Source: an uncultured Methanosarcinales archaeon (GTDB lineage: Archaea; Nanobdellota; Nanobdellia; Woesearchaeales; JACPBV01). Taken from it: a stretch of 64,000 nt of DNA. Shown in pieces: positions 36,064 through 54,830 of the stretch. Each line of letters opens with the position of its first letter. Position 1 is the stretch's first letter. The notes under the pieces are model-generated. The model had not been told where the DNA came from, searched no databases, and saw nothing but the letters and a program-made list of their open reading frames with translations. The stretch is taken from contig CAZNZT010000001.1 of NCBI GenBank assembly GCA_964577685.1, forward strand, positions 47,978-111,977, read 5' to 3'. Both the position numbers and the translations under genes were made by a program.

Positions 36064-39000
36064 ATGGAAGGGTGTAATTTGAAGTCAAGGATTATTTCTA
36101 TTCTTATTTCTATGTTTTTATTGATTTTTGTTTCAAATGTTTTGGCTCAATCGAATATTTTTGATTTCTATGGGTATGTGAAAGACGCTAATGGAAACTA
36201 TGTAAGTGGAGCAAATGTTACATTAAGAGAAGAGCTTATGGGCCCTGGAGGGACGCCATTAATATTTTCCACTTTATCAGATGCTAATGGCTTTTTTAAT
36301 ATTTCAAGTGTAAATGGCAGTACACTATATTTGCTTTCAATAGTTAAGTATTCTAATGGAGTTGCACAGCTTGTTAATAAACCACTTCCCCCCCTTCCAT
36401 CAGATATGTATGAGTTTCAATTGATTAATCAAACATTTTATTTAAAAGATGCTGCTACAATAAACATAACAATGTATAACGAAAGTGGGGATGATGTAAG
36501 CTTTAATGGATTTGTCCTAGACACAAAATATAATTATCCAATAGCGAAATTTGAGGATGAGAATAATCCAGTAATTAGAAAAGAGGTTGTTATCCCTGCT
36601 GGGAGGTTTAACTATTCTGTTGTTGTCTGGAAATCTGGTTATGCTCCTCCAAGGTCATTCAATGCTATTGCATACAATACAAGTAGAGGAGATATAGTAA
36701 ATGTAAGAGAAAATATAACCACAAATATGTTTTATCTGACTGGTTATTTAAAATGGCCTAATGGAAGCAATGTCACAAATGTTAATTTTACAGATGTTGC
36801 TTCTTATTTTCCAATTAGTAATTTTTTACCCCTAGATGGAGAAATAAAGGGATTCCAAAAGTATGTTGGAAGCAAAGGTGGTTATGCATGGTATAATATT
36901 TCTGTACCAGGGCCAAACCTTGATATCTTCGTTATGGCATTCGCTAATGATTCAGAATATTATATGGGTACTGCAAGAGTAACCATAACTGGTAATAAAG
37001 AAGAAAATATAACAATATATCCGTTAGCAGGTAGTTATGATATAGCAACTAGTACAAGTGTAGTGAATGTAAATACTAGTAAGACTACAATTAATGTTTT
37101 CTATGATAATGGAACACAAAATGTAAGTGCTGGGGAGACCTTCTTTGATATTCTAGTGAATTATAATGGAACACAGATTAAATTCACAGCAAAAACAAAT
37201 CTTAGTGGTTCAGCTAAGATTCCATTAAGGAATGATACAGGTGCAACAATAGAGATATTCAATGATAGGTTTCCACCAAGAAAGTTTACTTATAGTGGAG
37301 CTGAGCTTGAATCAGATATTAATATTATACTGAAGGGATTTGATAGAATGGAGGATGTAGAAGGAAACATAATTCAAGATATAAAGTCAGAATTTTTTGT
37401 TTCAAACTCAAGTTGTGATGTTCCGAATCCACCTTCTGATTGTTTGGTATTTGAAATAAGTAATGCTTCAAATCCAAGAGAGGGAGTAAAACTCTTATTG
37501 TTGCCTGGGGATGTATCAGTAAGATTAACCCAACTTTCAACAAATATTGTTGTACATTATAAGAATACAGACCTAATAGCTTCTGGCCCACCAGACTTTG
37601 AACCAAGCACTAGGGCTAATAATACTGGTTCTGGAGCATCTTTGAGAGATATTTGGAGATTTGGAAGTTTAGGCCCTGAAATTTATGAAAGCCTTCTTGT
37701 TGGTGTCCCGTATAATAGTTCAAGGATTGATGAAACTTATGCACCATTACCAAGTATATTAATAGGTAATTTATATGATGTACAAAACAATTGGGTACCA
37801 ATATGGAATTCAACAGACGACCCAAATGCCTCAAATGTCCCATCCGCTTACAGTGATTTTGATAGCAGATGGTTTAATGCTAGCTATGGTGGAATGCCAT
37901 GTACTAATGACTTGGATGTTTTCAATTCACTAAGTCAGGGTTGTTATGTAGACAAAACAAATGACATGATATGGTTAAAGATACCCCATTTCTCTGGACT
38001 TGGAATAACTGTGCAGGCATATGCTAACTTAGGTAACATTACATCAGATAGGGCTTCTTATTCTTGCTATCCAAGCTGCTCTGCTTATATTAACTTGACT
38101 ATGAACAACTCAGACCTTGCAGGGGTGCAGAATATCTCTGTTAACAATACAGCAACAGTTACTGGGATAACTTACAAGATAGAATATAAGAACCTCTCAA
38201 ACGGAGAGTGGGTCTACTTAGGGACAGCAAACGACAATAATAGCTGGATATACGATTATGATTTAGTTTTATATAATAGCTCAAATGTAGATAATACAAC
38301 ACATCAGTTTAGAATCAATATAACACTTCCTAGTGCACTATCAACAAAATGGAATTTTAGTTTAGTAATTAATGGTAGCATATATACCCTTGATCCATGG
38401 TTAGATAGTATAAACCTAACAAGTCCAGCAGATGGTGCTTCTGTTGCTTCAGGTAGTAACAATTTTGTATTTACATTGTTTTCTGACAGCTATCCAACAC
38501 AAAATTGTACACTTTATGTTGATGGCAGTGCTGTTGCATCAAATGCTTCAACGGTTAATGGTTCAGCAACTACACTCACAGCCAGTGTAACAAGTTCTGG
38601 TAGTTGGTATGTGAGTTGCAATGAAACAGGAAACTCCGAAGTAAGAACATTTATAGTTGATACAACTGGGCCAAGCATAACCTCTCTAAATTATCCAGGG
38701 AATAATCTAAAAGTAGGTAGTAGTTCTATAAACTTCAACTGGACAGCTACTGATGATATAGATACAAGCTTTGAGTGTAATTTAACTCTAGATGGGTTAG
38801 TCAATGCAAGCAGCATAACTGTAAGTAATGGGACCCCAGCAAACTATACAGTAAATAATATTAATGACGGGACACATAACTGGAGTGTAATTTGCGAGGA
38901 TGGTGTGGGTAACACAGGAAGTTCGCAAACTTATACCTTCTATATAGACACAACAGCACCTACTGTAACTATGAACCAGCCAACGGATGGTATGAATACA

Positions 39001-41214
39001 AGTAGCAGGATTATTAATGTAACCATAGTAGACTCAATCGCAGGAATAGATAATGAGTCTATAATGGTTGATACATATATCTGGAATGGTTCGGCGTTTA
39101 TTAATCAAACGAGATACTTATTCCCTAATAATGTAAGTTGCACAAGCACAGCAATGAATAGTACAAGCACGACATGTACATTTAATGCCTCCAAATTACC
39201 TGATACTGCAAATAGTAGCATAAATATTAGCGTGTTTGTAAATGACTCTCTTGACAATCAAAAGGTATCATCAATAGTCTTTAACCTAGATACTGTAGTG
39301 CCAGTTATGAATTCTATTAGTTTATCTGATAGCTATATAAGTTCTGGACAAGCAATTACAGTTACTGTTAATAGTACAGATACCCCTGGTACAGGTATTA
39401 GTAGTGTAACTCTAACATACTCTGTTGATAGTGTCAATGATACTACTCTCACAAAGGGAACAGGGGATTTATGGTTGGATTCAATCCTCGTTACAGAATC
39501 AAGTGATGGAAGCTACAATATTAGTGCAACAAGTGTAGATTATGCAGGAAATAGCAATGCAATCTCTGCTATAATCAGGATAGACAATACAGCACCTACA
39601 ATATCTGGAGCCTACGCCGATAATAGCTTATTGAGTAATTCTCCGACAATTACTGATGCTGATGGAAATGTAACAATAAACTGGACAATTACAGATGTAA
39701 ACCTTTCGTCTACTAATTTGTCAATAGACTCAGGTGTTATAACCAACTCTTCAACTTCAGCTGTAAATTCGTTTACTACAAGCTTGTCTGCGGGAGAACA
39801 TAATGCCACTATAAGTGCTATTGATGAGGCAGGAAATAGTGTTACAACAACATATACATTCTATATGAATTCACAGGAGAATACCAGTGAAATACTAAGT
39901 AAAATACAAAACGCAATAGGCTCGGATACAGCATTAAGTTTATCTCTAAAAGAAAGTGATGGGACTGACTTATCAAGTAATTTAACATACCTAAATAAAA
40001 CATTAGTACTAGAGATACTCTTAAATGGAACAAATGGACAGAAGGCATGGGGTACAATAAGAGAATTCAGTGGTCTATATGCTAAATGGAATAACAGCGA
40101 TAAAATAAGAATAGAAAAGGATAGTTCATCAAGTATAGGAACAAGGATAACACAAAGAGCAGGAACAACTTTAGACAAGTTTATATTGTTTAGGAATGCA
40201 TCTTATTTCCTTGGTAGTAGCAGATTTTCCCAAGGTGCATCAATTATATTTAATCAGAGTTTACCATCTGGCTATGATGTATTGTATATAGAAGATGATG
40301 ATGGTGAAACAATCTATAAACTAAGTAGATGTACTACAGTCCCTACAACAATAACAACCGATAATATGTGCTATGTGAACACATCAAATAATGTAACACT
40401 GTATATACCTCATTTCTCTGGTGGGGGACTAGCGAATGACACAACAGCACCAATTATTAATATAACAGACCCAGTGAACAATACTATAAAGAACAACAGT
40501 TACTTTACACTTACATTTGATGTTTGGGAGGCAAATCCAAAAACAAACAATCAATTTTGTAGGTATAATCTTACAAACAGTACAAACAAGGAGATAGAAG
40601 TAGGTTATCTTACAACACCTACACCAACTGGAACAAAGTATACATTCACTAAGGCTATAAGTGGTCTAAAAAACGATACATACAATATAACTATAATTTG
40701 TGCTGACTTAAATAACCAAAGTAGAACAGTAGTTCATAATTTCACGGTCGCAGATTCAATAGCTCCAAGGATAACTTCCATAAGTACATCATCAAGTGGA
40801 ACAACAGAGGTAACAGTAACCTTATCTGTTACAACAGATGAAGCAGCAACATGTAGGTATAGCTCGGCTGATGTAGCATATTCTTCAATGAGTTTAATGT
40901 CAAGCACTGGAGGGACTTCCCATTCTTATAGTAATAAATTTTATTTAGATAGTTCAGGCAGGTATTATGTGAGATGCATGGATGAAATGGGAAATGCCAT
41001 GACAAGTTCAAACTCTACCTCATATAGCATATACATAACAGAAGAAACTACAACCAGTTCAGGCGGAGGTGGGGGAGGAATTGGATATAGGCTAGTAAAG
41101 AAAAAAACAACCGCCTTTGAGTTAATTGACATTATAAGAGAGTTCTATGAAGGGACTTCAAAACTTAGTGCTTTTGATATAATTGATAAGATAAGAGAAT
41201 TTTATGGAGGTTAA
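36064..41214 (+). CDS. Giant secreted surface (S-layer/adhesin-like) glycoprotein candidate with no TM anchor
   Basis: 1716 aa. Signal 'MEGCNLKSRIISILISMFLLIFVSNVLAQ'. Dozens of N-x-S/T sequons. Repeated Ig-like segments ('DTTAPTVTM', 'DNTAPTISG', 'DTTGPSITS', 'DSIAPRITS'). Ends with a Gly6 run followed by the tandem 'AFELIDIIREFYEG'/'AFDIIDKIREFYGG' repeat. Confidence 0.7.
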   Translation: MEGCNLKSRIISILISMFLLIFVSNVLAQSNIFDFYGYVKDANGNYVSGANVTLREELMGPGGTPLIFSTLSDANGFFNISSVNGSTLYLLSIVKYSNGVAQLVNKPLPPLPSDMYEFQLINQTFYLKDAATINITMYNESGDDVSFNGFVLDTKYNYPIAKFEDENNPVIRKEVVIPAGRFNYSVVVWKSGYAPPRSFNAIAYNTSRGDIVNVRENITTNMFYLTGYLKWPNGSNVTNVNFTDVASYFPISNFLPLDGEIKGFQKYVGSKGGYAWYNISVPGPNLDIFVMAFANDSEYYMGTARVTITGNKEENITIYPLAGSYDIATSTSVVNVNTSKTTINVFYDNGTQNVSAGETFFDILVNYNGTQIKFTAKTNLSGSAKIPLRNDTGATIEIFNDRFPPRKFTYSGAELESDINIILKGFDRMEDVEGNIIQDIKSEFFVSNSSCDVPNPPSDCLVFEISNASNPREGVKLLLLPGDVSVRLTQLSTNIVVHYKNTDLIASGPPDFEPSTRANNTGSGASLRDIWRFGSLGPEIYESLLVGVPYNSSRIDETYAPLPSILIGNLYDVQNNWVPIWNSTDDPNASNVPSAYSDFDSRWFNASYGGMPCTNDLDVFNSLSQGCYVDKTNDMIWLKIPHFSGLGITVQAYANLGNITSDRASYSCYPSCSAYINLTMNNSDLAGVQNISVNNTATVTGITYKIEYKNLSNGEWVYLGTANDNNSWIYDYDLVLYNSSNVDNTTHQFRINITLPSALSTKWNFSLVINGSIYTLDPWLDSINLTSPADGASVASGSNNFVFTLFSDSYPTQNCTLYVDGSAVASNASTVNGSATTLTASVTSSGSWYVSCNETGNSEVRTFIVDTTGPSITSLNYPGNNLKVGSSSINFNWTATDDIDTSFECNLTLDGLVNASSITVSNGTPANYTVNNINDGTHNWSVICEDGVGNTGSSQTYTFYIDTTAPTVTMNQPTDGMNTSSRIINVTIVDSIAGIDNESIMVDTYIWNGSAFINQTRYLFPNNVSCTSTAMNSTSTTCTFNASKLPDTANSSINISVFVNDSLDNQKVSSIVFNLDTVVPVMNSISLSDSYISSGQAITVTVNSTDTPGTGISSVTLTYSVDSVNDTTLTKGTGDLWLDSILVTESSDGSYNISATSVDYAGNSNAISAIIRIDNTAPTISGAYADNSLLSNSPTITDADGNVTINWTITDVNLSSTNLSIDSGVITNSSTSAVNSFTTSLSAGEHNATISAIDEAGNSVTTTYTFYMNSQENTSEILSKIQNAIGSDTALSLSLKESDGTDLSSNLTYLNKTLVLEILLNGTNGQKAWGTIREFSGLYAKWNNSDKIRIEKDSSSSIGTRITQRAGTTLDKFILFRNASYFLGSSRFSQGASIIFNQSLPSGYDVLYIEDDDGETIYKLSRCTTVPTTITTDNMCYVNTSNNVTLYIPHFSGGGLANDTTAPIINITDPVNNTIKNNSYFTLTFDVWEANPKTNNQFCRYNLTNSTNKEIEVGYLTTPTPTGTKYTFTKAISGLKNDTYNITIICADLNNQSRTVVHNFTVADSIAPRITSISTSSSGTTEVTVTLSVTTDEAATCRYSSADVAYSSMSLMSSTGGTSHSYSNKFYLDSSGRYYVRCMDEMGNAMTSSNSTSYSIYITEETTTSSGGGGGGIGYRLVKKKTTAFELIDIIREFYEGTSKLSAFDIIDKIREFYGG

Positions 41215-45416: not shown

Positions 45417-45980
45417 TTATTTTGAAAGCAAAACATTTAGTTTACGAAATATTCTCTTTGCTGCATCTAATGGTTTTACTTCGTTTGAATTAATTATTAT
45501 CTCGCTGGATTTATTCTCTTCAAACGGAACATCAACTCCTATGACTTGTCCCAGACCATCAAATTTTTTCCTATGCATCTTCCTTTCAAGTGCTTTTTTG
45601 TAGATTCTAGCCATAACCAAGCTTTCTTTCCTATTAGTTTCTCTTTTGATACAGATATCTAAAGGACATTTTATATAAACTTCAATGAAATTATTTACTT
45701 TTTTTCTTACATAATCCCTATATAACTTCTTATGTGCTGTCGCATCAATTAATACATTATTGTTTTTTGATAACTCTATTGCATAATCTCCCAATTTTCT
45801 ATAAACAAAATCTCTCTCCTCTTCTGTATATTTTGGATTTGGCACTATTTTTTTTCTAAATTTGTCTAGTCTTAGATATTTTATTGATATTTTATTGTCC
45901 TTTAGTAGTTTTAATAGTTTCTTTGCAATTGTTGATTTGCCAGAACCAGGTAATCCTGTAATCCAAATTACAAAAGTCAT
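45417..45980 (-). CDS. Adenylylsulfate (APS) kinase-like P-loop kinase
   Basis: 187 aa, 'IWITGLPGSGKSTIAKKL...LRLDKFRKK...FIEVYIKCPLDICIKRE...GVDVPFEE' parallels APS-kinase blocks. Confidence 0.5.
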   Translation of the reverse strand: MTFVIWITGLPGSGKSTIAKKLLKLLKDNKISIKYLRLDKFRKKIVPNPKYTEEERDFVYRKLGDYAIELSKNNNVLIDATAHKKLYRDYVRKKVNNFIEVYIKCPLDICIKRETNRKESLVMARIYKKALERKMHRKKFDGLGQVIGVDVPFEENKSSEIIINSNEVKPLDAAKRIFRKLNVLLSK

Positions 45981-47053
45981 TTTAGATAATCATTTAACTT
46001 GTTAATGTTAAATTCTTTATCCTTAAGAATATTTTTTATGAATTTGAATATCTTCTTTCTTGTTTCATTGCTTTGATTTGGGTAGAACAGTGGGTGTGCT
46101 ACCACTACGCCCCTAAACGCAAAAAAGATTGGAGCAATGTGGCTAATAGCTTTATCATTTGTCTTTCTAAGATAATTATTCCAAAATAGATTAAATAGCT
46201 CTATAAAAATGCCTGAAAACCTATTGTTCTGCTGCAAGGCATACCAGAGATAGTTTATTGATAATGCTGTCAAATCATCCGTAGGATCCCCGAACTCTTC
46301 TCTAGAAGCATCTAGGACTGTAAATTTATCTTTGTAGAATAAGATATTTCCAGGATGGAAGTCTCCATGAATCCTACATAGCCTATAACTCATATGTTTT
46401 ATCTCCTCCCTAAGTTCCACAGCCCTTGTTATTATTTCAGTAATCTCTTTTATATTAGTCCATTTTAATCTTTCTGGATATGTATCTAAGACACCCATCA
46501 GCATCTCCCCACCACCAACACAATCCCTCAGATGCCTTCTATAGAGTGAATCCGCTATTTCTTTTTTACCTCTAAATTTATTTTTGTGTAAGTTCACAAG
46601 ATAATTCGATAACAAAAGTGCTTTTTTCCTATCTTCTTTGCTGAGTTTCCCTCTTTCTTTGATTTCATTTATATAGTCAAAGTATTCCCTTCCTTCTGCG
46701 ACCTCAACTATCTGGAAAAACTCTTCGCAATTGCCTAAAGAAACAAGAGAACCATGCTTAGTGTAGCCTCCAACATCTAGTGATTTTATGTGAAGCGGAA
46801 TCTTCTTGCTTAGCTCATGTTGCAGTATAAAGACTTTTGCTCTATCTGCTTTATAATCATGAGAAAAGCCCTCAGGTCTTATAGTTCTTAATATAACTTT
46901 TTTTTCCTTTTTACCCACAATATAAACAATGCTATAACCAGTTCCATGCCATCCGGAACCAAGCCTTTTATAAGTCTTAATTTTGATAGGTTTATTTTCT
47001 ATTTTTTCAAGATATTTCTGCATTATATGCCTTGGTATTTTTATTTCTTTCAC
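45977..47053 (-). CDS. Aminoglycoside/choline-kinase-type phosphotransferase (APH fold)
   Basis: 358 aa, 'RIHGDFHPGNILFYKDKFTVLDASREEFGDPTDDL' (HGD..N catalytic loop plus D). Its stop overlaps the upstream kinase start (ATGA). Confidence 0.5.
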   Translation of the reverse strand: MKEIKIPRHIMQKYLEKIENKPIKIKTYKRLGSGWHGTGYSIVYIVGKKEKKVILRTIRPEGFSHDYKADRAKVFILQHELSKKIPLHIKSLDVGGYTKHGSLVSLGNCEEFFQIVEVAEGREYFDYINEIKERGKLSKEDRKKALLLSNYLVNLHKNKFRGKKEIADSLYRRHLRDCVGGGEMLMGVLDTYPERLKWTNIKEITEIITRAVELREEIKHMSYRLCRIHGDFHPGNILFYKDKFTVLDASREEFGDPTDDLTALSINYLWYALQQNNRFSGIFIELFNLFWNNYLRKTNDKAISHIAPIFFAFRGVVVAHPLFYPNQSNETRKKIFKFIKNILKDKEFNINKLNDYLK

Positions 47054-48380: not shown

Positions 48381-48475
48381 TTTTTTAATATTATTTTTGA
48401 TAAATAATTTATAAAATTAACCGTTATTAGCAAAAAACCGAAGAGTTTAAATAAGCAAATTAATAAAAAGATGAT

Positions 48476-50326
48476 ATGATAGTCAAGCCAAAGGGAAGAT
48501 ACCTTATAGAGATATCTCAAGAGGTAATGAATCCTATCGGTGGAGTGTACACTGTCATAAGGTCTAAAGTTAAAGAGATGGTTAGATACTATGGTAAAAA
48601 CTACTTTTTGATAGGTCCTTGTTCCTCATTGTATCCAGTAGAATTTAAGGAAGAAAAGCCACCTAGAGATATCAAGGCTGTTTTTGATGGGTTATCAAGA
48701 CTAGGGATTATATGTTATTATGGGAGATGGATTGTTGAAGGTAGACCACAGGTGTTTCTGGTTGATTCTTCCAAACGAATAAATGAGTTAAATGAAATAA
48801 AAGACAATTTAACAAAAAAATATAATATTGACTTTAGATTATCAAATAATGAGAAAACAAACAAAGAAATAGACGAGCTTATTGTTTGGGGAGATTCAAC
48901 AACAATCTTAATTGAAAAATTAATACAATTGAATAGATTCAAAAATAAGATAGGTGTAATCCACCTTCATAATTCAGGTATTCCCGTTCTACCTTTAATT
49001 GCCAAGTTAAGAGACAAAAATGCGAAAGTTGGTTTAGTACTAACCTTACATGCTACCAGCCTTGGGAGAAAGATACTCATGAATAAAGAAAACCTTTACT
49101 CTGAGATAAAAAAAGGACTCAAAAATAAATGTGAGGTAAGTAAAAATAGAGTATCTCTTTACGGACAACCAAGCATATTTCTTCATCAATTAGAAAAACT
49201 AGGTGCTAAAAGAGCTGATGTTGTAACTGCCGTTAGTGGATTAACATCAAAAGAAGCAAGATATATTCTTGGTAGGGAGGCTGATGTTGTAACGCCGAAT
49301 GGTGTTGACCTTAGTTTTTTTCCTACTCTTGAAGATAGAGCCATAATCCACAGTATTTCAAAAGAAAAAATACATAAATTCCTAAATGCTTATTTTTTAC
49401 CATATTATCCAGTTGATGTCAAGGATTCATTATTGTTTTTTAGTTCTGGAAGATATGAATTGATAACAAAGGGATATGAGATTTTTCTTGAGGCGTTAGG
49501 AAAACTCAATAATATTCTAAAGAAAAAAAATAGTAAGAAGAATATATTCGTTTTTTTGTTTATTATGAAAAAAAACAAAGAACCAAAAGAAGAAGTGATA
49601 AGAAATCTTTCTTTATATTGGACTATTGAACAAGAGGTTAATAAGGAGATGCTATATATAAAGAACAAAGTAATGGGGGCGTTAATCCATGGTTATGATT
49701 TAAAATATAAGCATATATTTGATGATGCATTCTTGATAAATACAAAAAAGATTATCCAAAAACTATTCAATAAAAAAAATAAATTACCACCTGTCTGCGC
49801 CCATAGGGGATTGGATAAAGGGGATTCTTTATTGGAGTTGTTGAAAAAAAACAAACTTGAAAACAAAAAGAGTGATAAGGTCAAAGTTATATTTTATCCT
49901 GCTCCGGTTTCTGTATCTGATGGTCTATTGTCAATGGACTATTTTTCCGTTATTTCTGGTATGCAACTTGGGGTATTTCCTTCGCTATATGAACCATGGG
50001 GATATACAGCACTAGAAACTGCCCTGCACGGTGTTATGGGTATTACAACAGACGCAGCAGGATTTGGAAGGTTTATTCAGAAGATAAACAAAGGAAAAAA
50101 AGAAGGAGTGTTTGTATTAAAAGTGCTAAATAGAAAAGAAAAAGATATTACTAATGAATTAGTTAAAATGATGTACAAGATAACAAAGCTTTCTAGAGAG
50201 GAAAGGATAAAAAATAAGATAAAGGCATATGAGCTTGCTACTCTTACAGATTGGAAGAGATTTGCTAAATATTATATAAGGGCGCATAATTTGGCAATTG
50301 AAAGATGCAAAAAAAGATTACATTAA
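48476..50326 (+). CDS. GT3-type glycogen(starch)-synthase-like glycosyltransferase, paralog A
   Basis: 616 aa. 'YLIEISQEVMNPIGGVYTVIRSKVKEM' matches the GT3 'EVANKVGGIYTV' N-terminal signature. 'FPSLYEPWGYTALE' matches the GT-B catalytic E. Confidence 0.6.
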   Translation: MIVKPKGRYLIEISQEVMNPIGGVYTVIRSKVKEMVRYYGKNYFLIGPCSSLYPVEFKEEKPPRDIKAVFDGLSRLGIICYYGRWIVEGRPQVFLVDSSKRINELNEIKDNLTKKYNIDFRLSNNEKTNKEIDELIVWGDSTTILIEKLIQLNRFKNKIGVIHLHNSGIPVLPLIAKLRDKNAKVGLVLTLHATSLGRKILMNKENLYSEIKKGLKNKCEVSKNRVSLYGQPSIFLHQLEKLGAKRADVVTAVSGLTSKEARYILGREADVVTPNGVDLSFFPTLEDRAIIHSISKEKIHKFLNAYFLPYYPVDVKDSLLFFSSGRYELITKGYEIFLEALGKLNNILKKKNSKKNIFVFLFIMKKNKEPKEEVIRNLSLYWTIEQEVNKEMLYIKNKVMGALIHGYDLKYKHIFDDAFLINTKKIIQKLFNKKNKLPPVCAHRGLDKGDSLLELLKKNKLENKKSDKVKVIFYPAPVSVSDGLLSMDYFSVISGMQLGVFPSLYEPWGYTALETALHGVMGITTDAAGFGRFIQKINKGKKEGVFVLKVLNRKEKDITNELVKMMYKITKLSREERIKNKIKAYELATLTDWKRFAKYYIRAHNLAIERCKKRLH

Positions 50327-50382
50327 CCATATTCTTAAATCGGCGAAAGTCTTATAAAGACAAATAAATACATAGCAGATGT

Positions 50383-51381
50383 GTGGAAATGAATGTCGAA
50401 GAATGGTTTAATAAATATAAGTTCAAATGTCAAAGTTTTTCAAATATAAAAAGACTAGTTGAACTTAAAAATAAACAAAAGTTGAAGATAAGTTTGTGTA
50501 TTCCTACCTATAACGAAGAGGCAACTATAGAGAAGATTGTTAGTATTATAAAATCAAAGTTTATAGACAGATATAAACTATTAGATGAGCTTGCAGTTAT
50601 AGATTCTGGCTCTAGTGACAAAACAAGAGAATTAGCAAAAAGGGCTGGTGCTGATGTTTATCTTGCATCTGAAATCCTAAAAAAAGAGGGGCATCACAGA
50701 GGTAAAGGTGAAAACCTATGGAAGGCTCTTTATGTGCTTAGTGGAGATATAATATGTTGGATTGACGGAGACATAAAAAATATACATCCTAGGTTTGTCT
50801 ATGGTTTAGTCGGTCCATTGCTTACACATCCAAAGATTGGATTTGTAAAACCATTCTATAAAAGACCCCTTAAGATAGGAGACAGACTACAACCGCTTGG
50901 GGGAGGCAGAGTAACTGAATTAACGATAAGACCTTTATTCAATCTCTTTTTTCCTAGGCTAAGCGGATTTATACAACCACTTAGTGGGGAAGGAGCCGGG
51001 AGGAGAAGCATTCTTGAAAGAATCCCGTACTTCACTGGCTATGGCGTTGAAACTGGAATGTTGATTGATATAGTAAAAAAATTCGGTTTAAGATCAATAG
51101 CTCAAGTAGATTTACTAACTAGGGTACACAGGAATCAAGAGCTTTCTAGCCTAAGCAATATGGCTTTTGCTATTTTACAGGTTTTTTCAAAGAGGGCAAA
51201 TACACTTGGAAAACTTGTTCTTGTTAGAGGGATAAGAAAGAAATACAGAATAATTGAAAGAAGGAATGGGGAATATATCTTAAAGAAAAAGATTATATCT
51301 GAAGTGCAGAGACCACCGATGATAACTTTAAAACAATACAGAAAAAAATTCAAAAAAGATCCAGTATGGTTATATGTATAG
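50383..51381 (+). CDS. GT2/GT81-like glucosyl- or mannosyl-3-phosphoglycerate synthase candidate
   Basis: 332 aa, 'ISLCIPTYNEEATIEKIV...LAVIDSGSSDKTRELAKRAGADVY...WIDGDI' (DxD). Pairing with an MpgP-like phosphatase supports the call. Confidence 0.5.
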   Translation: MEMNVEEWFNKYKFKCQSFSNIKRLVELKNKQKLKISLCIPTYNEEATIEKIVSIIKSKFIDRYKLLDELAVIDSGSSDKTRELAKRAGADVYLASEILKKEGHHRGKGENLWKALYVLSGDIICWIDGDIKNIHPRFVYGLVGPLLTHPKIGFVKPFYKRPLKIGDRLQPLGGGRVTELTIRPLFNLFFPRLSGFIQPLSGEGAGRRSILERIPYFTGYGVETGMLIDIVKKFGLRSIAQVDLLTRVHRNQELSSLSNMAFAILQVFSKRANTLGKLVLVRGIRKKYRIIERRNGEYILKKKIISEVQRPPMITLKQYRKKFKKDPVWLYV

Positions 51382-52180
51382 AAAATTTGTTATTTTTACA
51401 GATGTAGATGGGACTTTAATAGACTCAGAAAGATATTCCTGGAAGGATGCTAGTCAGGCGGTTTCGTTAATAAGGAAAAGAAAGATTCCTTTAGTGTTAT
51501 GTTCAAGTAAAACAAAGAGAGAAATAGAGGTTCTGAGAAAAGAGATAAAAAATAAAAACCCATTTATAGTAGAGAATGGAAGTGCTATATTTATTCCAAA
51601 AAACTATTTTGATTTTGACTTCGATTATAGTTACAAAAAAGGAAGATATTATGTTATTCAACTGGGAGAGAAGTACAATAGAATAATAAAAGCATTATGG
51701 AAAATAAAGAAACTAAAAGGGATAAAGGTAAGTGGTTTTAAGGATATGTCTGTTAAGGATTTAAGCAAAGATTGTGGGTTGACTATAAAAAAAGCTCGTT
51801 TGGCCAAGAAAAGAGAATTTAGTGAACCTTTTATATTGAAAAGAGGAAATATAGAGGATATAAAAAAAGCTATGAATAAGATGGGATTAACATATATGAA
51901 AGGCAGAAGGTATCATTATATAATGGGGGATTGTGATAAAGGGGAAGCAACAAAAATACTTATAGGCCTTTTTAAAAGAAAGTATAAAAACATTGTTTCT
52001 GTTGCCTTAGGAGATAGTTTTAGTGACCTACCTATGCTAAAAAGCACAGATATAGCGATTATAGTTAAGATGCAAAAAGATAAGTATGATAGTAAATTAC
52101 TGAAATATGGTTTTTTAAAAAAAGCGAAAGGAATAGGTCCAAAGGGATGGAATTCGACTATTCTTGATTTAATTAAATAG
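51374..52180 (+). CDS. Mannosyl/glucosyl-3-phosphoglycerate phosphatase (HAD-IIB, YedP/MpgP family)
   Basis: 268 aa, 'VIFTDVDGTLIDSERYSWKDASQAVSLIRKRKIPLVLCSSKTKREIE' closely matches the MpgP N-terminus. Overlaps the synthase by 8 nt. Confidence 0.6.
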   Translation: MYRKFVIFTDVDGTLIDSERYSWKDASQAVSLIRKRKIPLVLCSSKTKREIEVLRKEIKNKNPFIVENGSAIFIPKNYFDFDFDYSYKKGRYYVIQLGEKYNRIIKALWKIKKLKGIKVSGFKDMSVKDLSKDCGLTIKKARLAKKREFSEPFILKRGNIEDIKKAMNKMGLTYMKGRRYHYIMGDCDKGEATKILIGLFKRKYKNIVSVALGDSFSDLPMLKSTDIAIIVKMQKDKYDSKLLKYGFLKKAKGIGPKGWNSTILDLIK

Positions 52181-52189
52181 CAGGTCATT

Positions 52190-53902
52190 ATGAAAAAAAT
52201 AAAAGCAAAGGCAGATTTCCTGATTGAAGTATCCTATGAGATAGTTAAACAACTCGGTGGAATTCATACTGTTATTAAAACAAAAGCACCTTTTATAAAG
52301 AAATATTATGGAGAAAATTACCTAGTCATTGGGGTTTATACTAAAGAAGGGATTAAAAAAAGATTTAAAGCGAGAAAACCAAGTAAGGAGATAAGAAAAC
52401 TTTTTTTGGAATTAAAAAATGAGAAGATACTAGCGCGCTATGGTACTTGGCTTGTAAAGTCTAATCCAAAGGCGATTCTTATTGATACTAGAAAATTAAG
52501 AAAAGACAAAAAAATAAAGAGTATTATAAAAAAGGAATATGGCATTGGACTTTCTAGTAAGGACTATTATCAAAGAGATTCCTTTCTTTTCGGATATGCT
52601 GCCGGGAGATTGATATATGAATTAAGAAAACTAAATTTTCTTAAGAACAAAAAGATAGTCGTTAATGCTCACGAATATATGAGTGGTCTATGTTTATTAT
52701 ATTTAAGAAAACATAAAGCAAATTTGCCATTGGTTTTTACAACCCATGCTACTGTTCTTGGAAGAACTATTAGTTATAAGGGTGAAAATATACAAAAGAC
52801 GATACTAAGACTAAGCAAAAAAGGAAAACATGAGCATGAAAAAAAAGTTAAGGAATATATAAAAAAGATAAACAAAATAACATATACGAAGCATTTAGTT
52901 GAGAAAGCTTGTTCAAAAAAAGCTGATGTTTTTACTACGGTTAGCGAAACAACATCAAAGGAAGCGGCTTTTTTGTTAGGAAAAAAAGCAGACATCATAA
53001 CACCGAATGGATTAGAAATTATAAAACATCCTAGTATAGATGAACAGCTGGCAATAAACTACAAATCAAAACAAAAAATTTATAGATTCCTTGAAGCATA
53101 TTTTTATCCGTATTATTGGATAAACACAAAAGACTCCTTATTATTTTATACCTCTGGGAGAAACGAGATATATACGAAAGGATATGACCTATTTTTTGAG
53201 GCTTTGAACAAACTAAACTCAAGACTAAAAAGAGAGAAGTATGAAGGAAACATATTTGTATTCTTATTTATAATGATCAGAAAAAAAAGAATAAAGAAAA
53301 TCATTAAGAAAACATTATATGCTTACAGAAAGAACAAAAAGCTATTAAAAAAGATAAAACTTACTAAAAATCCTCCAAACTGTGCATTTGATACTAGAGG
53401 TGATAATACTGTTTTGATGTATCTTAAAAAAAATAAACTTGAAAACAAAAAGAGTGATAAGGTCAAAGTTATATTTTATCCGGCACCTGTGGAGGAGAAT
53501 GATGGATTACTTTCAATGAGTTACAAAGAGATAATCTCTGGAATGGACTTAGGCATTTTCCCGTCTCTATATGAACCATGGGGGTACACCCCGCTTGAAT
53601 CTGCTGCTATGAGTACAATCACCATAACAACAGACATAGCAGGATTTGGAAGGTTCATAAAGGAAAAAAGTGATCAAAGAAAAAGACAGGGAATAATTGT
53701 TTTAAGGACCAAGAGAAAAACTAGATTGGAGATTATTGAAAATTTGGCTAAGACAATGCAGGAAATTGTTAATATGCCAAAAGAAAAAAGGCTAAAAATG
53801 AGGATTGATGCCAATAAACTATCAGGCTTCGCAAATTGGGAGGAGTTCTCTAAGAATTATATAAAAGCCCATAACCTTGCTCTTGAGAAACATAAGAAAT
53901 AA
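52190..53902 (+). CDS. GT3-type glycogen-synthase-like glycosyltransferase, paralog B
   Basis: 570 aa, 'FLIEVSYEIVKQLGGIHTVIKTKAP', 'FPSLYEPWGYTPLE'. Shares an identical 23-aa / 47-nt patch with paralog A. Confidence 0.6.
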   Translation: MKKIKAKADFLIEVSYEIVKQLGGIHTVIKTKAPFIKKYYGENYLVIGVYTKEGIKKRFKARKPSKEIRKLFLELKNEKILARYGTWLVKSNPKAILIDTRKLRKDKKIKSIIKKEYGIGLSSKDYYQRDSFLFGYAAGRLIYELRKLNFLKNKKIVVNAHEYMSGLCLLYLRKHKANLPLVFTTHATVLGRTISYKGENIQKTILRLSKKGKHEHEKKVKEYIKKINKITYTKHLVEKACSKKADVFTTVSETTSKEAAFLLGKKADIITPNGLEIIKHPSIDEQLAINYKSKQKIYRFLEAYFYPYYWINTKDSLLFYTSGRNEIYTKGYDLFFEALNKLNSRLKREKYEGNIFVFLFIMIRKKRIKKIIKKTLYAYRKNKKLLKKIKLTKNPPNCAFDTRGDNTVLMYLKKNKLENKKSDKVKVIFYPAPVEENDGLLSMSYKEIISGMDLGIFPSLYEPWGYTPLESAAMSTITITTDIAGFGRFIKEKSDQRKRQGIIVLRTKRKTRLEIIENLAKTMQEIVNMPKEKRLKMRIDANKLSGFANWEEFSKNYIKAHNLALEKHKK

Positions 53903-53908
53903 TTTTTG

Positions 53909-54679
53909 TTATATTCTCCTACAAAAGGTTAAAAAACCTGTGTGTACTGTCTGTGTAGTAACAGGTCTTACCCTTCTTTCTTCTACTTCCCAATCCCTTT
54001 TAATTATTTCAAGAGTTCTTAGATGAATAAAAGAACTGCTATTATTTACGACTCTAACAAAATCCATTACTTGAGGTATTGTTGGGGAATAAGACACAAG
54101 AAAACCCCCTATTTTAAGTGCTTTCCCCACACTTTTTAGGGCGTTCCAAGGGGAGGGTAGGTCCAAGACAACGAGATCAACATCCTTTTCGTCTATGCCT
54201 TTGAATACATCCTTTTTTTTCACTTTTATGTTTTTTAATCCTAAAAATCTTATATTATCCTTAACAAGTTTATAAAAATCATCTCTTATCTCATAGGTTA
54301 CTACCTCTTTACAGATATTAGCTAGAAAACATGCTAGAGCTCCTGAGCCAGCACCAGCATCAACCACCTTGCTGTTCTTATTAACTCCTGTAAATGCAAT
54401 GATAATGCCTATGTCCTTTAAAGATACAATTTGTGCTCCTCTTTTTATCCTCATATAATCATCAACAAAGCTTGGGGATATAAGGATGAACTCTTTTTTT
54501 ATGTTACTAAGAATTCTAGAACCATCCTTCCTCTTTAAATCGCTTTTTTTTATCACACCATCAGAACAATGATAATCTTTAGAGATATCATTTACATAGT
54601 ATGTCTTTATCTTTGTTGATTTAAACTTATTACTTAATTTCTCTTTATTACTTTCTTTTCTGACTAATATTTTTGGCAT
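53909..54679 (-). CDS. trmI: tRNA (adenine57/58-N1)-methyltransferase TrmI
   Basis: 256 aa, 'GAQIVSLKDIGIIIAFTGVNKNSKVVDAGAGSGALACFLA'. Confidence 0.7.
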   Translation of the reverse strand: MPKILVRKESNKEKLSNKFKSTKIKTYYVNDISKDYHCSDGVIKKSDLKRKDGSRILSNIKKEFILISPSFVDDYMRIKRGAQIVSLKDIGIIIAFTGVNKNSKVVDAGAGSGALACFLANICKEVVTYEIRDDFYKLVKDNIRFLGLKNIKVKKKDVFKGIDEKDVDLVVLDLPSPWNALKSVGKALKIGGFLVSYSPTIPQVMDFVRVVNNSSSFIHLRTLEIIKRDWEVEERRVRPVTTQTVHTGFLTFCRRI

Positions 54680-54693
54680 TGTAATGAATTAAA

Positions 54694-54830
54694 TGGGCCT
54701 AGGAGGATTCGAACCCCCGACCTTAAGCCAATCTAGGTTCTCACCTAAGATTTTCAGCTGACCTCCTATTTAATAGAAGGCTGCCGCTCTTTTTGGCAAA
54801 CCCATTGTGTCCAAACTGAGCTATAGGCCC
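54694..54830 (-). tRNA. Intron-containing tRNA gene (137-nt precursor). Probable tRNA-Arg with anticodon UCU. Three non-exonic inserts are inferred.
   Basis: The minus-strand read is GGGCCTA-TA-GCTC-AGTTTGG[20 nt]A-GAGC-G-GCAGC-CTTCTA[14 nt]A-GCTGA-[35 nt including about 30 extra]-GGGGG-TTCGAAT-CCTCC-TAGGCCC-A. The acceptor stem is a perfect 7 bp and the T-arm is canonical. Exons sum to 73 nt. Confidence 0.6.

Follow-up and report, generated by a model that had tools for sequence, protein, structure and literature searches.

Layout of the cluster

Why should a glycosyl-phosphoglycerate synthase and a matching phosphatase be bracketed by two glycogen synthase-like proteins in an archaeon? The question is raised by four genes on a 64-kb stretch of DNA (hereafter the window). 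The window is archaeal, with TopoVI A/B, PCNA, Orc1/Cdc6, aIF5B, L10/P0, RIO1 and an intron-containing tRNA, and the host is a small-genome, low-GC DPANN-type archaeon. An earlier note on this DNA described the gene order, shared strand, 8-nt overlap and tight spacing, all of which are borne out (window 48476-53902, all + strand; Table 1). Read from the sequence, synthase and phosphatase overlap by 8 nt (ATGTATAG) and a 9-nt spacer precedes GT3-2. An alternative GTG start at 50383 would lengthen the synthase to 332 aa; its database counterpart (P0217) begins at the ATG. The identical four-gene set occurs in L001 and L002, independently assembled sequences from the same organism.

Table 1. Features of the four-gene cluster (window coordinates)
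Feature	Position	Strand	Description	Evidence or remark
Region upstream of GT3-1	48381..48475	+	intergenic	AT-rich TATA-like box TTTATAAAATTAA, about 48409-48421
GT3-1	48476..50326	+	616 aa, clade G long type	PF05693 Glycogen_syn, E=2e-108
47-nt tract in GT3-1	49853..49899	+	encodes KLENKKSDKVKVIFYP	identical to 53435..53481
GT3-1/synthase spacer	50327..50388	+	62 nt	TATA-like TTATAAAG at 50351-50358
GpgS-type GT81 glycosyl-3-phosphoglycerate synthase	50389..51381	+	330 aa from ATG at 50389	
MPGP-family HAD-IIB phosphatase	51374..52180	+	268 aa	candidate glucosyl-3-phosphoglycerate phosphatase
GT3-2	52190..53902	+	570 aa, clade G short type	PF05693, E=2e-100
47-nt tract, partner copy in GT3-2	53435..53481	+		identical to 49853..49899

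The cluster is compact and probably co-transcribed. The region upstream of GT3-1 possibly holds an archaeal promoter, and the spacer after GT3-1 a possible internal promoter for the synthase, phosphatase and GT3-2; TATA-like strings are common because the genome has 32% GC. A sigma-70 scan upstream of GT3-1 gave fewer sites than shuffled sequences, and the sigma-70 model is not applicable here. In the 64-kb window there is neither a branching enzyme nor an NDP-glucose pyrophosphorylase nor a glucan hydrolase, and GalT-like, GDE_C, GH15 and GT4 genes are absent too.

The synthase and phosphatase

The synthase scores 363 bits against the NCBIfam glucosyl-3-phosphoglycerate synthase model NF010496, exceeding the equivalog cutoff (262) by 100 bits, and also matches PF00535. 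A dolichyl-phosphate mannose synthase was considered and rejected, as models of that type reach 16-21 bits, and the GT81 assignment proposed earlier stands. The DxD (DGD), GGRVTEL, PLSGE and HRN motifs align with those of its PDB matches, a Rubrobacter MpgS/GpgS (3f1y, 226 bits) and M. tuberculosis GpgS (4y6n, 193 bits). Relatives named GpgS in DPANN are up to 83% identical. The best solved match is deposited as MpgS.

The phosphatase belongs to the MPGP family, as had been suggested, scoring 223 bits against TIGR01486 (cutoff 164.75) and 227 bits, just under the cutoff of 244, against the MpgP equivalog TIGR02461. Its HAD motifs DVDGT, SSKT and GDSFSD align with the MpgP structures of P. horikoshii (1wzc, 4e-34) and T. 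thermophilus (3ztw, 3e-32). Judged from their sequences, a GT81 enzyme and a HAD-IIB phosphatase form the standard two-step glycosylglycerate pair. The synthase would convert NDP-hexose and 3-phosphoglycerate to glycosyl-3-phosphoglycerate and the phosphatase would release glycosylglycerate, most likely glucosylglycerate. An archaeal precedent is Methanococcoides burtonii, where GpgS and a MPGP-like HAD phosphatase acting as GpgP make a compatible solute (work cited in PMC3736172). The window GpgS is, however, of the actinobacterial/Rubrobacter GT81 type and scores only 28 bits against the Methanococcoides-type model NF040724 (cutoff 700), and we found no literature describing a GT3 linkage of the M. 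burtonii system.

Two divergent GT3 proteins

Both flanking proteins are predicted to have the glycogen-synthase (GT3) fold. The AlphaFold2 models of GT3-1 (pLDDT 90.1) and GT3-2 (pLDDT 91.8) superpose on solved eukaryotic glycogen synthases (GS) with TM scores of 0.87-0.91 and 0.85-0.90, respectively, which together with PF05693 upholds the GT3-like assignment of the earlier note. Homology to the eukaryotic enzymes (yeast Gsy2p, human GYS1, C. elegans GSY-1; CAZy GT3) is full-length (1e-83), and GT3-1 aligns with all three from end to end. The two proteins share 39-54% identity by region and 45% over 556 aligned codons, so "divergent paralogs" describes them correctly.

The residues that bind donor glucose, diphosphate and ribose, the E-X7-E motif and the catalytic residues are intact in both proteins and identical to those of eukaryotic GS, and most of the phosphate-binding half of the G6P site survives (K301, R582, K/R586). 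Other features differ from eukaryotic GS. The phosphoregulatory N- and C-terminal tails are absent, conservation does not extend to the Arg cluster R580/R588/R591, and the uracil-stacking Phe481 is Pro in both (IFYPAPV in GT3-1). GT3-1 retains the tetramerization helices (alignment and AlphaFold2 model), but its loop equivalent to yeast E169 (human E181) reads HLH-NSGIP and lacks both the acidic residue and the adjoining Trp; the Lys of NKVGG is Pro. GT3-2 retains this Glu (NAHEY), carries Asp where the G6P site has His501 and is about 40 residues short in the tetramerization helices, a deletion that maps to human GYS1 389-431.

A 47-nt tract is identical in the two genes: 15/16 codons match, the background for identical residues elsewhere being 0.475 (uncorrected p about 7e-6). 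It is probably a short gene-conversion patch between the paralogs.

A clade with broken family invariants

In neighbour-joining trees, the only kind built for the GT3s, both proteins fall within a clade of DPANN-archaeal GT3s, clade G, that is monophyletic in 100/100 bootstraps. It is small, with 5 members among the 150 best representatives, as against 334 clusters at E<=1e-30. New here is that two GT3 family invariants are broken in this clade. The aromatic residue that stacks on the base (human position 481), found in 161/161 GT3s outside clade G, is Pro, so that by sequence the nucleotide pocket of the clade is altered. In the long type, which includes GT3-1, the HEW loop at yeast E169 is remodelled, whereas E181 is present in 161/161 outside GT3s. 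The loop is heterogeneous, and some long-type members, that at L169 among them, keep Asp or Glu. All 23/23 long-type proteins conserve H205, R211, R331, K337, E510, W512, G513, Y514 and E518 (donor sugar, diphosphate, ribose), and the catalytic residues as well, which argues for a working enzyme. GT3-2 belongs to the short type (P0125-P0139; 58-66% identity, 558-574 aa; monophyletic in 100/100 bootstraps), which, from the alignments, is a conserved group keeping the Glu and lacking the tetramerization helices.

The canonical GT3s of DPANN and Patescibacteria, of the same family and host kind, are about 35-40% identical to the window proteins and have a putative alpha-glucan function (PMC11046441). 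They differ in keeping HEW (159/161) and mostly the NKVGG Lys, while the window proteins lie apart in the 100%-bootstrap clade. The suggestion of the earlier note that the window GT3s are not classical glycogen synthases draws independent support from the way the nucleotide pocket has changed in this clade specifically, and from the change that GT3-1 shows in the otherwise invariant E169 loop.

Genomic neighbourhoods

A GpgS and/or MPGP-type phosphatase adjoins a clade-G GT3 in 6/13 sampled loci: the window and five other, divergent loci (L003, L167, L169, L170/171, L172) in which the gene order is rearranged. This recurrence is the opposite of the missing co-occurrence in related genomes that the earlier note would have counted against its idea. 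Scores in these loci are 357-368 bits for GpgS and 202-269 bits for the phosphatase. The other seven clade-G loci have neither within the sequence available, and neither lies beside other prokaryotic GT3s at any of 158 loci outside clade G, many from DPANN (Fisher p about 5e-8, without correction for phylogeny). Glycerate-2-kinase-like genes accompany four loci and GH13_18-type phosphorylases two; L003 has an MGS-type GT (PF21969, 92.6 bits) beside its clade-G GT3, and L175 a full-length distant MggS homolog (195 bits). Canonical loci typically run GT4 ... GT3 - GalT-like - GDE_C - GH15, and GalT-like, GDE_C and GH15 genes occur in 66/160 loci of the wider family.

At L169, the long-type GT3 abuts MPGP-GpgS and a separate canonical GT3 abuts GH15/GDE_C, implying different roles for the two. 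At L177, the short-type ortholog is accompanied by an NDP-sugar pyrophosphorylase, a canonical GT3 and a GT4/5-like transferase, while neither GpgS nor MPGP is encoded within 10 kb of it. DPANN archaea very commonly carry GpgS, and the top matches of the synthase are mostly not on contigs with a clade-G GT3; the pathway can therefore do without these enzymes. Shared ancestry of a small-genome "sugar island" could account for part of the association.

What would the GT3 enzymes make?

Our preferred reading, held tentatively, is that the GT3s may glucosylate glucosylglycerate or its phosphate to give glycerate-anchored glucosides or a primed glucan, acceptor and donor being proposed only from gene context and residue changes. 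The cluster would then couple two-step glycosylglycerate synthesis to two specialised glucosyltransferases that transfer alpha-glucose from NDP-glucose to glucosylglycerate or its phosphorylated precursor, comparable to MggA in mannosylglucosylglycerate synthesis. With an acceptor-side loop lacking the invariant Glu-Trp, GT3-1 would take a non-glucan, anionic acceptor, and chain extension would fall to GT3-2, with its Glu. This would yield either an oligoglucosyl-glycerate solute or an alpha-1,4-glucan primed by glycerate, with a small molecule standing in for glycogenin. Eukaryotic GS has a glycogenin partner, of which archaea have no known homolog, and their GT3 enzymes are uncharacterised (PMC11046441). 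If the reading is true, glucosylglycerate would be the missing starter of glucan synthesis in archaea without glycogenin. Against it, GT3s of the same organisms occur in the glucan-enzyme context described above. In line with the earlier note, our literature searches turned up no described archaeal cluster joining glycosylglycerate genes to GT3s.

Two known systems resemble this proposal. In mycobacteria, GpgS, a GT81 enzyme like that of the window, initiates methylglucose lipopolysaccharide (MGLP) by making the glucosylglycerate base for an alpha-1,4-glucan (GpgS Rv1208, GpgP Rv2419c; PMC2674218). The window phosphatase differs in being HAD-IIB (MPGP family) rather than of the mycobacterial type (cf. 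PMC3240985). The four-gene cluster has no methyltransferase or acyltransferase genes as neighbours. The proposed elongating enzyme of MGLP is a GT4, whereas that of the window cluster would be a GT3. In the mannosylglucosylglycerate pathway of Petrotoga and Rhodopirellula (GpgS, MggA, MggB), a retaining GT-B enzyme acts on the phosphorylated intermediate GPG before a phosphatase; the genes sometimes form one gpgS-mggA-mggB operon and are often accompanied by a sucrose-phosphorylase-like gene (PMC3736172). The GH13_18-type phosphorylases and distant MggS homolog among relatives of the window cluster are reminiscent of this. However, MggA and MggS are GT4 mannosyltransferases, whereas the GT-B enzymes of the window cluster are GT3s and the window has no GT4; the sugar they add would be glucose, because the glucose-binding residues are conserved.

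Could two pathways simply be co-located? It is a real possibility, and the main alternative, that glucosylglycerate is a compatible or nitrogen-limitation solute and that the GT3s are glycogen synthase isoforms making ordinary alpha-1,4-glucan, which would either prime itself or depend on a different priming enzyme, for instance the GT4 often present in related loci. Clustering would then follow from a shared NDP-glucose pool and joint induction, for instance when carbon is in excess and nitrogen is limiting. Consistent with this are the conserved fold and catalytic, sugar and diphosphate residues, the Glu of GT3-2, the glycogen-type neighbours family-wide (GalT-like, GDE_C, GH15, GT4), the merging of both gene sets in one island at L169, the short type at L177 with a pyrophosphorylase and without glycerate genes, the spread of GpgS in DPANN independently of clade-G GT3s, and the treatment of archaeal GT3 as glycogen synthase in a review (PMC11046441). 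Left unexplained are why GpgS/MPGP adjoin clade G only, why the long type lost a loop residue invariant elsewhere, why the base-stacking aromatic was lost clade-wide and why L169 retains a canonical GT3 alongside the long type. The window also lacks the branching enzyme, pyrophosphorylase and hydrolase of a glucan pathway.

That GT3-1 is instead an impaired, regulatory or scaffolding paralog seems unlikely. It would assemble with an active GT3 into a hetero-oligomer (its partner being the short type here and the canonical type at L169), and its link to glucosylglycerate would be regulatory, for instance sensing GPG or GG, rather than through substrate. The missing Glu-Trp and NKVGG Lys of GT3-1 fit such a role, as do the recurrent pairing of GT3s from different subfamilies (window, L169, L177), the tetramerization helices that GT3-2 lacks, the mostly kept phosphate binders of the eukaryotic G6P site (K301, R579, R582, K586) and the genetic interaction evident in the probable gene-conversion patch. 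Yet conservation of the donor-sugar, diphosphate and ribose residues throughout the long type would be unusual for a pseudoenzyme, most sampled long-type loci have only one GT3 within reach, and front-face retaining GT-B enzymes do not need a catalytic base, according to a review.

We consider it improbable that the GT81 enzyme makes mannosyl-3-phosphoglycerate for mannosylglycerate or a glucosyl-mannosylglycerate-type solute: the higher-scoring match to the Rubrobacter xylanophilus "MpgS" than to mycobacterial GpgS, a phosphatase family named for MpgP with a score near the equivalog cutoff, and the MGS-type (mannosylglycerate synthase) domain at L003 favour it, but the clear margin over the GpgS cutoff, the hundreds of close DPANN relatives annotated GpgS and the M. 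burtonii precedent count against it, as does the Rubrobacter enzyme itself, which is GpgS-like and accepts both GDP-Man and glucose donors.

A glycosylglycerate gene pair between two GT3 genes

The four plus-strand open reading frames described in an earlier note were recovered at the same coordinates. They encode two glycogen synthase-like GT3 proteins, GT3-1 and GT3-2, and, between them, a GT81 synthase (GpgS) and an MPGP-family HAD-IIB phosphatase. The junctions, read from the sequence, are a 62-nt gap between GT3-1 and the synthase, whose start in databases is the ATG at 50389, an 8-nt overlap of synthase and phosphatase (ATGTATAG), and a 9-nt spacer before GT3-2. Neighboring genes are archaeal housekeeping genes (topoisomerase VI A/B, PCNA, Orc1/Cdc6, aIF5B, L1, L10/P0, SerRS, Trm1, RIO1, endonuclease V and an intron-containing tRNA), and the GC content of the region is 30-36%. 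TATA-like AT-rich boxes precede GT3-1 and GpgS, so the cluster may consist of two transcription units, GT3-1 alone and a tightly coupled GpgS-phosphatase-GT3-2, a visual impression in a genome of 32% GC. A sigma-70 promoter scan returned fewer hits than shuffling predicts; this bacterial model is not meaningful for an archaeon.

Features of the window and of selected GT3 loci (coordinates are those of the window unless a locus is named)
Feature	Location	Strand	Details
GT3-1 (PF05693 Glycogen_syn)	48476-50326	+	616 aa; 2e-108, 364 bits
GpgS, GT81 synthase	50389-51381	+	NF010496, 363.4 bits vs 262; aligned 2-317 of 332 residues (GTG-start form)
Phosphatase	51374-52180	+	TIGR01486 MPGP family, 223.2 bits vs 164.75
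GT3-2 (PF05693 Glycogen_syn)	52190-53902	+	570 aa; 2e-100, 337 bits
TATA-like box upstream of GT3-1	about 48409-48421		AT-rich
TATA-like box before GpgS	50351-50358		AT-rich; in the 62-nt gap
47-nt identical tract	49853-49899 and 53435-53481		in GT3-1 and GT3-2
GT3 pair, long and short	48476-53902	+	around the GpgS-MPGP cassette
GT3 pair, long and canonical	L169 8001-16515		around MPGP-GpgS-GDE_C-GH15
GT3 pair, canonical and short	L177 6165-11710		around NTP_transferase-GT4
Enolase-superfamily gene	L167 6603-7970
Enolase-superfamily gene	L170 2070-3443
Enolase-superfamily gene	L169 5437-6813
Enolase-superfamily gene	L172 7230-8597
GCD14/TrmI-type tRNA methyltransferase	53909-54679	-
tRNA gene	54694-54830	-	137 nt; 71-position Rfam model, 40.1 bits
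APH-like phosphotransferase and APS_kinase/AAA_33-type P-loop kinase	45417-47053	-	358 aa and 187 aa; 4-nt overlap
MscS-type mechanosensitive channel	9270-10142	+
Na+/H+ exchanger	15979-17163	-
Large open reading frame	36064-41214	+	1716 aa

The assignments that the earlier note gave to the middle pair are borne out. Against 363 bits for the GpgS equivalog model, dolichyl-phosphate hexose and all other GT2 models reach 49 bits or less on the synthase, which discards a dolichyl-phosphate mannose synthase. Its best match among solved structures is a Rubrobacter GT81 enzyme deposited as MpgS (226 bits), followed by mycobacterial GpgS (193 bits), and its D-G-D (DxD), GGRVTEL, PLSGE and HRN motifs are in register with 3f1y and 3e25. 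By the M. tuberculosis structures, the last three motifs would bind 3-PGA and DxD would be the metal site. The phosphatase passes the MPGP family model and falls below the MpgP equivalog TIGR02461 (227.3 vs 244.35 bits), which its orthologs at the related loci L167, L169 and L172 pass with 246-269 bits. It matches MpgP of Pyrococcus (P. horikoshii 1wzc, 4e-34) and Thermus (3e-32), and the HAD motifs FTDVDGTL, CSSKT and GDSFSD, aligned to 1wzc, are intact. The two enzymes form the standard two-step route to a glycosylglycerate, and the equivalog model indicates that the product is probably glucosylglycerate (GG).

GT3-1 and GT3-2 belong to a distinct GT3 clade

Both flanking proteins far exceed the curated PF05693 cutoff of 27 bits, and GT3-1 aligns end to end with glycogen synthases of C. 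elegans, human and yeast (1e-83 to 1e-76). AlphaFold models (pLDDT 90.1 for GT3-1 and 91.8 for GT3-2) have the GT-B two-Rossmann fold and superpose on eukaryotic glycogen synthases with TM scores of 0.85-0.91 (0.85-0.90 for 4qlb, 8cvx and 5suk), compared with about 0.5 for the GT5 synthases of P. abyssi and E. coli. Thus Pfam, alignment and superposition all agree with the earlier description of the proteins as GT3-like. Residues were mapped using the ligand contacts of human GYS1 (PMC9287172), whose numbering is used below unless yeast is named. In both paralogs, every contact to donor sugar, diphosphate and ribose is retained, namely H205, R211, R331, K337, E510, P511, W512, G513, Y514, E518 and Y493, with E510 and E518 forming E-X7-E. 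The set E510/E518, R331, K337, H205, R211 and W512-G513-Y514 is complete in 23/23 proteins of the type of GT3-1 and 15/15 of the type of GT3-2. This conservation argues that both are active glucosyltransferases.

GT3 homologs are plentiful in both DPANN archaea and Patescibacteria, an abundance that had been pointed out in a 2024 review (PMC11046441). GT3-1 and GT3-2 fall within a small DPANN clade (clade G), recovered in 100/100 bootstraps; all GT3 trees here are neighbor-joining trees. Its members are at least 44% identical to GT3-1, except two proteins added later, P0143 and P0144, at 39%. The clade splits into a long type (605-645 aa, including GT3-1), a short type and a third group. The short type comprises GT3-2 and 14 orthologs (558-574 aa, 58-66% identity, 100/100 bootstraps). 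GT3-1 and GT3-2 are sisters in 0/100 bootstraps, which points to an old duplication. GT3-2 as a decaying copy of GT3-1 is rejected, given its orthologs of the same length with the same motifs and its position, never sister to GT3-1. An HMMER search of 1.84 billion representatives gave 334 GT3 clusters at E ≤ 1e-30, and clade G accounts for 5 of the best 150 of these 334 cluster representatives. A metagenome scan for closer relatives yielded identities of 45% or less among the matches listed, and scans of viral contigs gave nothing useful.

One 616-aa clade-G protein (P0121) is labelled ‘Flavobacteriales bacterium’ in NCBI. Locus L167 (NCBI GCA_001048895.1 contig) carries P0009, which represents the 90% cluster to which P0121 belongs. 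Its contig also encodes DPANN-like genes and an archaeal deoxyhypusine synthase, and the label therefore probably reflects a mis-binned MAG contig.

Clade G departs from otherwise invariant GT3 positions. Position 481 (human F481), where an aromatic residue stacks against the nucleotide base, is F or Y in 161/161 GT3s outside the clade and Pro in the long and short types, including both window paralogs (motif IFYPAPV); in the unbiased sample of the best 150 representatives, Pro481 occurs only in the five clade-G members. This alteration of the nucleotide pocket suggests that the donor nucleotide differs too. The loop H-x-H-E-W, which corresponds to yeast E169-W170 (human E181) as checked via the native-numbered chain 6u77_A, is HEW in 159 and HEY in 2 of the 161 outside proteins, and among the best 150 representatives it is remodelled only in clade-G members, plus one HKW. 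GT3-1 has HLH-NSGIP, without Glu, Trp or any acidic residue. GT3-2 has NAH-EY, keeping the Glu, and N-x-H-E-Y occurs in 15/15 short-type proteins. Long and third types carry insertions of 1-3 residues and varied sequences; some long-type members keep an Asp or Glu nearby (e.g., Q-DY at L169), so the loop has been remodelled in varied ways. We take yeast E169 to be important for catalysis or acceptor positioning; PDB 4kqm is an ‘E169Q mutant in complex with glucose and UDP’. In GT3-1, remodelling of this loop with loss of its acidic residue suggests that the acceptor is not the end of a plain glucan.

An identical stretch of 47 nt is shared by the GT3-1 and GT3-2 genes, whose DNA identity is otherwise 57%. 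The tract, with 15/16 codons identical vs a background of 0.475, spans the clade-specific nucleotide-pocket motif KVKVIFYP(AP) and is probably a short gene-conversion patch.

Further positions differ as well. The NKVGG Lys is lost in the long type. All 15 short-type proteins are missing ~40 residues equivalent to human 389-431, and GT3-1 keeps this helical hairpin (H372-405 and H417-430 in the AlphaFold model). In the human enzyme these residues lie within the ‘tetramerization domain’, and helix alpha16 carries K429/R430 (PMC9287172). His501 of the glucose-6-phosphate site is Asp in 14/15 short-type members and Gln in GT3-1. Prokaryotic GT3s generally keep the phosphate-binding residues K/R301, H501, R582 and K/R586 of the eukaryotic glucose-6-phosphate allosteric site (human GYS1 alignment positions 301, 501, 579, 582, 586), and the phospho-sensing Arg cluster R580, R588 and R591 is absent from them. 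The retained residues hint at an ancient effector site for phosphosugars, older than eukaryotic regulation.

Glycerate genes adjoin some clade-G GT3s

The earlier note had asked whether the cluster co-occurs in related genomes, and linkage of its genes does recur. GpgS and/or MPGP genes adjoin the GT3 in 6 of 13 distinct clade-G loci, sampled on metagenomic contigs of varying length, vs 0/158 loci outside the clade (Fisher p about 5e-8, uncorrected for kinship). The order of the genes varies from locus to locus, an argument for selection on their proximity. The 158 other loci come from metagenomes and species-representative genomes. Their flanks contain no GpgS, MPGP-type phosphatase, glycerate kinase or GH13 gene, and glycerate-gene linkage as a general property of prokaryotic GT3s is therefore rejected.

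Gene content of clade-G loci (MGS-type, PF21969 glycosyltransferase; bit scores in brackets)
Locus	Genes
Window	GT3-long, GpgS, MPGP, GT3-short
L003	MPGP, glycerate-2-kinase-like, GT3, GpgS-like GT2 (166 bits), MGS-type GT (92.6 bits)
L167	GpgS (357 bits), glycerate kinase-like, GH13_18-type phosphorylase, enolase-superfamily, GT3, MPGP (246 bits), GalT-like
L170/171	gene set as L167; GpgS (368 bits)
L169	GalT-like, glycerate kinase-like, GT2, enolase-superfamily, GT4, GT3-long, MPGP (269 bits), GpgS (362 bits), GDE_C, GH15, canonical GT3
L172	GalT-like, GH100-like hydrolase, MPGP (257 bits), GT4, GT3, enolase-superfamily
L175	full-length distant MggS homolog (195 bits); no GpgS/MPGP in reach
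L174	weak MGS-like and MggS-like GTs; no GpgS/MPGP in reach
L004, L006, L007, L096	no GpgS/MPGP in reach
L177 (short-type ortholog)	canonical GT3, NTP_transferase, GT4/5-like, GT3-short; no glycerate genes

GpgS itself is widespread in DPANN archaea, with 7980 matches at E ≤ 1e-40. The top 120 are 62-83% identical, and the name GpgS is already attached to many of them, in Nanoarchaeota, Woesearchaeota, Aenigmarchaeota and Diapherotrites. Their contigs rarely agree in length with those of clade-G GT3 matches, so most DPANN GpgS genes probably do not adjoin such a GT3. Evidently the glycerate pathway works without clade-G GT3s, and any dependence runs from the GT3s to the pathway. By best non-self identity, GpgS (83%) is far more conserved than its neighbors GT3-2 (66%) and GT3-1 (54%); GT3-1 is either fast-evolving or missing from the closest relatives.

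Recurrent pairs of GT3 subfamilies were found: long and short in the window, long and canonical (outside clade G) at L169, and canonical and short at L177. Their recurrence suggests that paired enzymes cooperate, as a hetero-oligomer or in sequential steps.

Among 160 fetched GT3 loci, which include the two clade-G loci L007 and L096, common neighbors are GDE_C (66), GT4 (65), GalT-like (27) and GH15 (13). In DPANN and Patescibacteria these genes form a cluster with the usual order GT4 ... GT3 - GalT-like - GDE_C (about 590 aa) - GH15 (about 330 aa); examples among L007-L166 are L012, L022, L027, L048, L061 and L095. This arrangement is a glycogen-type cluster, and the recurrent GT4 is a candidate initiator. 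The GalT-like gene directly downstream of GT3 suggests that phosphorolysis or exchange, rather than a pyrophosphorylase, supplies the nucleotide sugar.

At four divergent loci, an enolase-superfamily protein (455-458 aa, MR_MLE_N/C) directly adjoins the long-type GT3. It has no equivalog assignment and is absent from the window, and no part for it in the metabolism of glucosylglycerate or glucan is known to us. A 417-433-aa (alpha/alpha)6 hydrolase that adjoins several clade-G GT3s was considered as a glucosylglycerate hydrolase; the GgH model gives 26-29 bits vs 550, which does not support this, and the best solved matches are GH100 invertases (2e-15). A 332-aa gene at the edge of L172, considered as GpgS, is deoxyhypusine synthase.

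Possible roles of the clade-G GT3s

Do these enzymes make glycogen? Branching enzyme and sugar nucleotidyltransferase, which the earlier note named as genes to look for, are not found in the window. Pfam searches of 34 ORFs detect no branching enzyme, NDP-glucose pyrophosphorylase or glucan phosphorylase/hydrolase there, and 25 tblastn queries recover no glycogen-cluster accessory gene. GH13/15/57/133, GalT-like, GT4 and sugar nucleotidyltransferase genes are likewise missing, with all of these searches covering the 64-kb window rather than the genome. In these absences from the window the cluster differs from a classical glycogen gene cluster. It also differs from the mycobacterial methylglucose lipopolysaccharide (MGLP) system, since no methyltransferase, acyltransferase (OctT) or GT4 alpha-1,4-glucosyltransferase of that pathway lies beside it; the sole adjoining methyltransferase is the GCD14/TrmI tRNA enzyme on the opposite strand. 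The MggA/MggS GT4 mannosyltransferase of the mannosylglucosylglycerate pathway is absent from the window, and a distant MggS homolog occurs only in the relative L175 (195 bits vs a cutoff of 640).

Eukaryotic GT3 glycogen synthases need glycogenin and cannot start a chain. According to the 2024 review (PMC11046441), glycogenin has no homolog in the archaea and bacteria that possess GT3, and none of the archaeal GT3s has been assayed. There are precedents for building on glycerate compounds: GpgS initiates the MGLP glucan (PMC2674218), and elsewhere GpgS is followed by MggA acting on glucosyl-3-phosphoglycerate (GPG) and then by a phosphatase (PMC3736172). Because of these precedents and the clade-specific glycerate-gene linkage, we tentatively propose, as the best and a quite possible reading of the sequences, that clade-G GT3s glucosylate GG or GPG to give glycerate-anchored glucosides or a glycerate-primed glucan. 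GT3-1 would then be the initiating enzyme, and GT3-2 would extend.

The main rival, which we hold with slightly more doubt, is that these GT3s are glycogen synthase isoforms merely co-located with an osmolyte pathway. Shared NDP-glucose and shared regulation would explain the adjacency. If true, this would be a tidy example of co-organized osmolyte and storage metabolism in reduced genomes. That GT3-1 is a regulatory protein or pseudoenzyme, its loop devoid of acidic residues, is improbable given its perfectly conserved donor site.

In a more far-reaching reading, rather unlikely in our estimate, clade-G GT3s would prime GT3-type glucan synthesis independently of glycogenin. The long type (GT3-1), through its remodelled loop free of acidic residues, would add glucose to GG or GPG. 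A GT3 that keeps the Glu (in the window the short type, at L169 the canonical type) would extend the glycerate-anchored chain, possibly within a hetero-oligomer. DPANN archaea would then have a small-molecule primer for GT3 glucan, akin to the glucosylglycerate head of MGLP but built by the glycogen enzyme family of eukaryotes.

GT3 and GpgS in DPANN archaea are each already known or auto-annotated. The earlier note knew of no described archaeal cluster of this kind, and full-text literature searches accord with this, as they turned up neither a described GT3-glycosylglycerate linkage nor a described GT3 subfamily of the clade-G type. Glucosylglycerate is nowhere mentioned in the review of archaeal GT3 and its missing glycogenin (PMC11046441). 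What is new is a conserved combination of known families and a GT3 subfamily defined by its sequence.

The priming of archaeal GT3 synthases, an acknowledged open question, becomes directly testable. The cluster is a cloneable four-gene hypothesis, with acceptors (GG and GPG) that are commercially or enzymatically accessible and three candidate donors. Whether or not the primer idea holds, clade G is now defined as a GT3 subfamily whose nucleotide pocket and acceptor loop are changed, and it should help to explain how enzymes of the GT3/GT35 lineage select donors and acceptors. To our knowledge, the carbon storage and stress physiology of DPANN archaea are largely unknown; the cluster may reveal new glycerate-anchored oligosaccharides in them, either compatible solutes or storage compounds.

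Other features of the window

Approximately 1.4 kb upstream of the cluster, on the opposite strand, are the overlapping genes for an APH-like phosphotransferase and a P-loop kinase; maltokinases are APH-like. The tRNA gene directly upstream of the GCD14/TrmI-type methyltransferase is much longer than its Rfam model and so contains an intron; it was missed by ARAGORN in bacterial mode. The MscS-type channel and Na+/H+ exchanger, neither of which adjoins the cluster, are consistent with an organism that manages osmotic stress. The 1716-aa open reading frame, whose sole Pfam match is a weak, sub-threshold Big_13, probably encodes a large surface protein typical of DPANN archaea.
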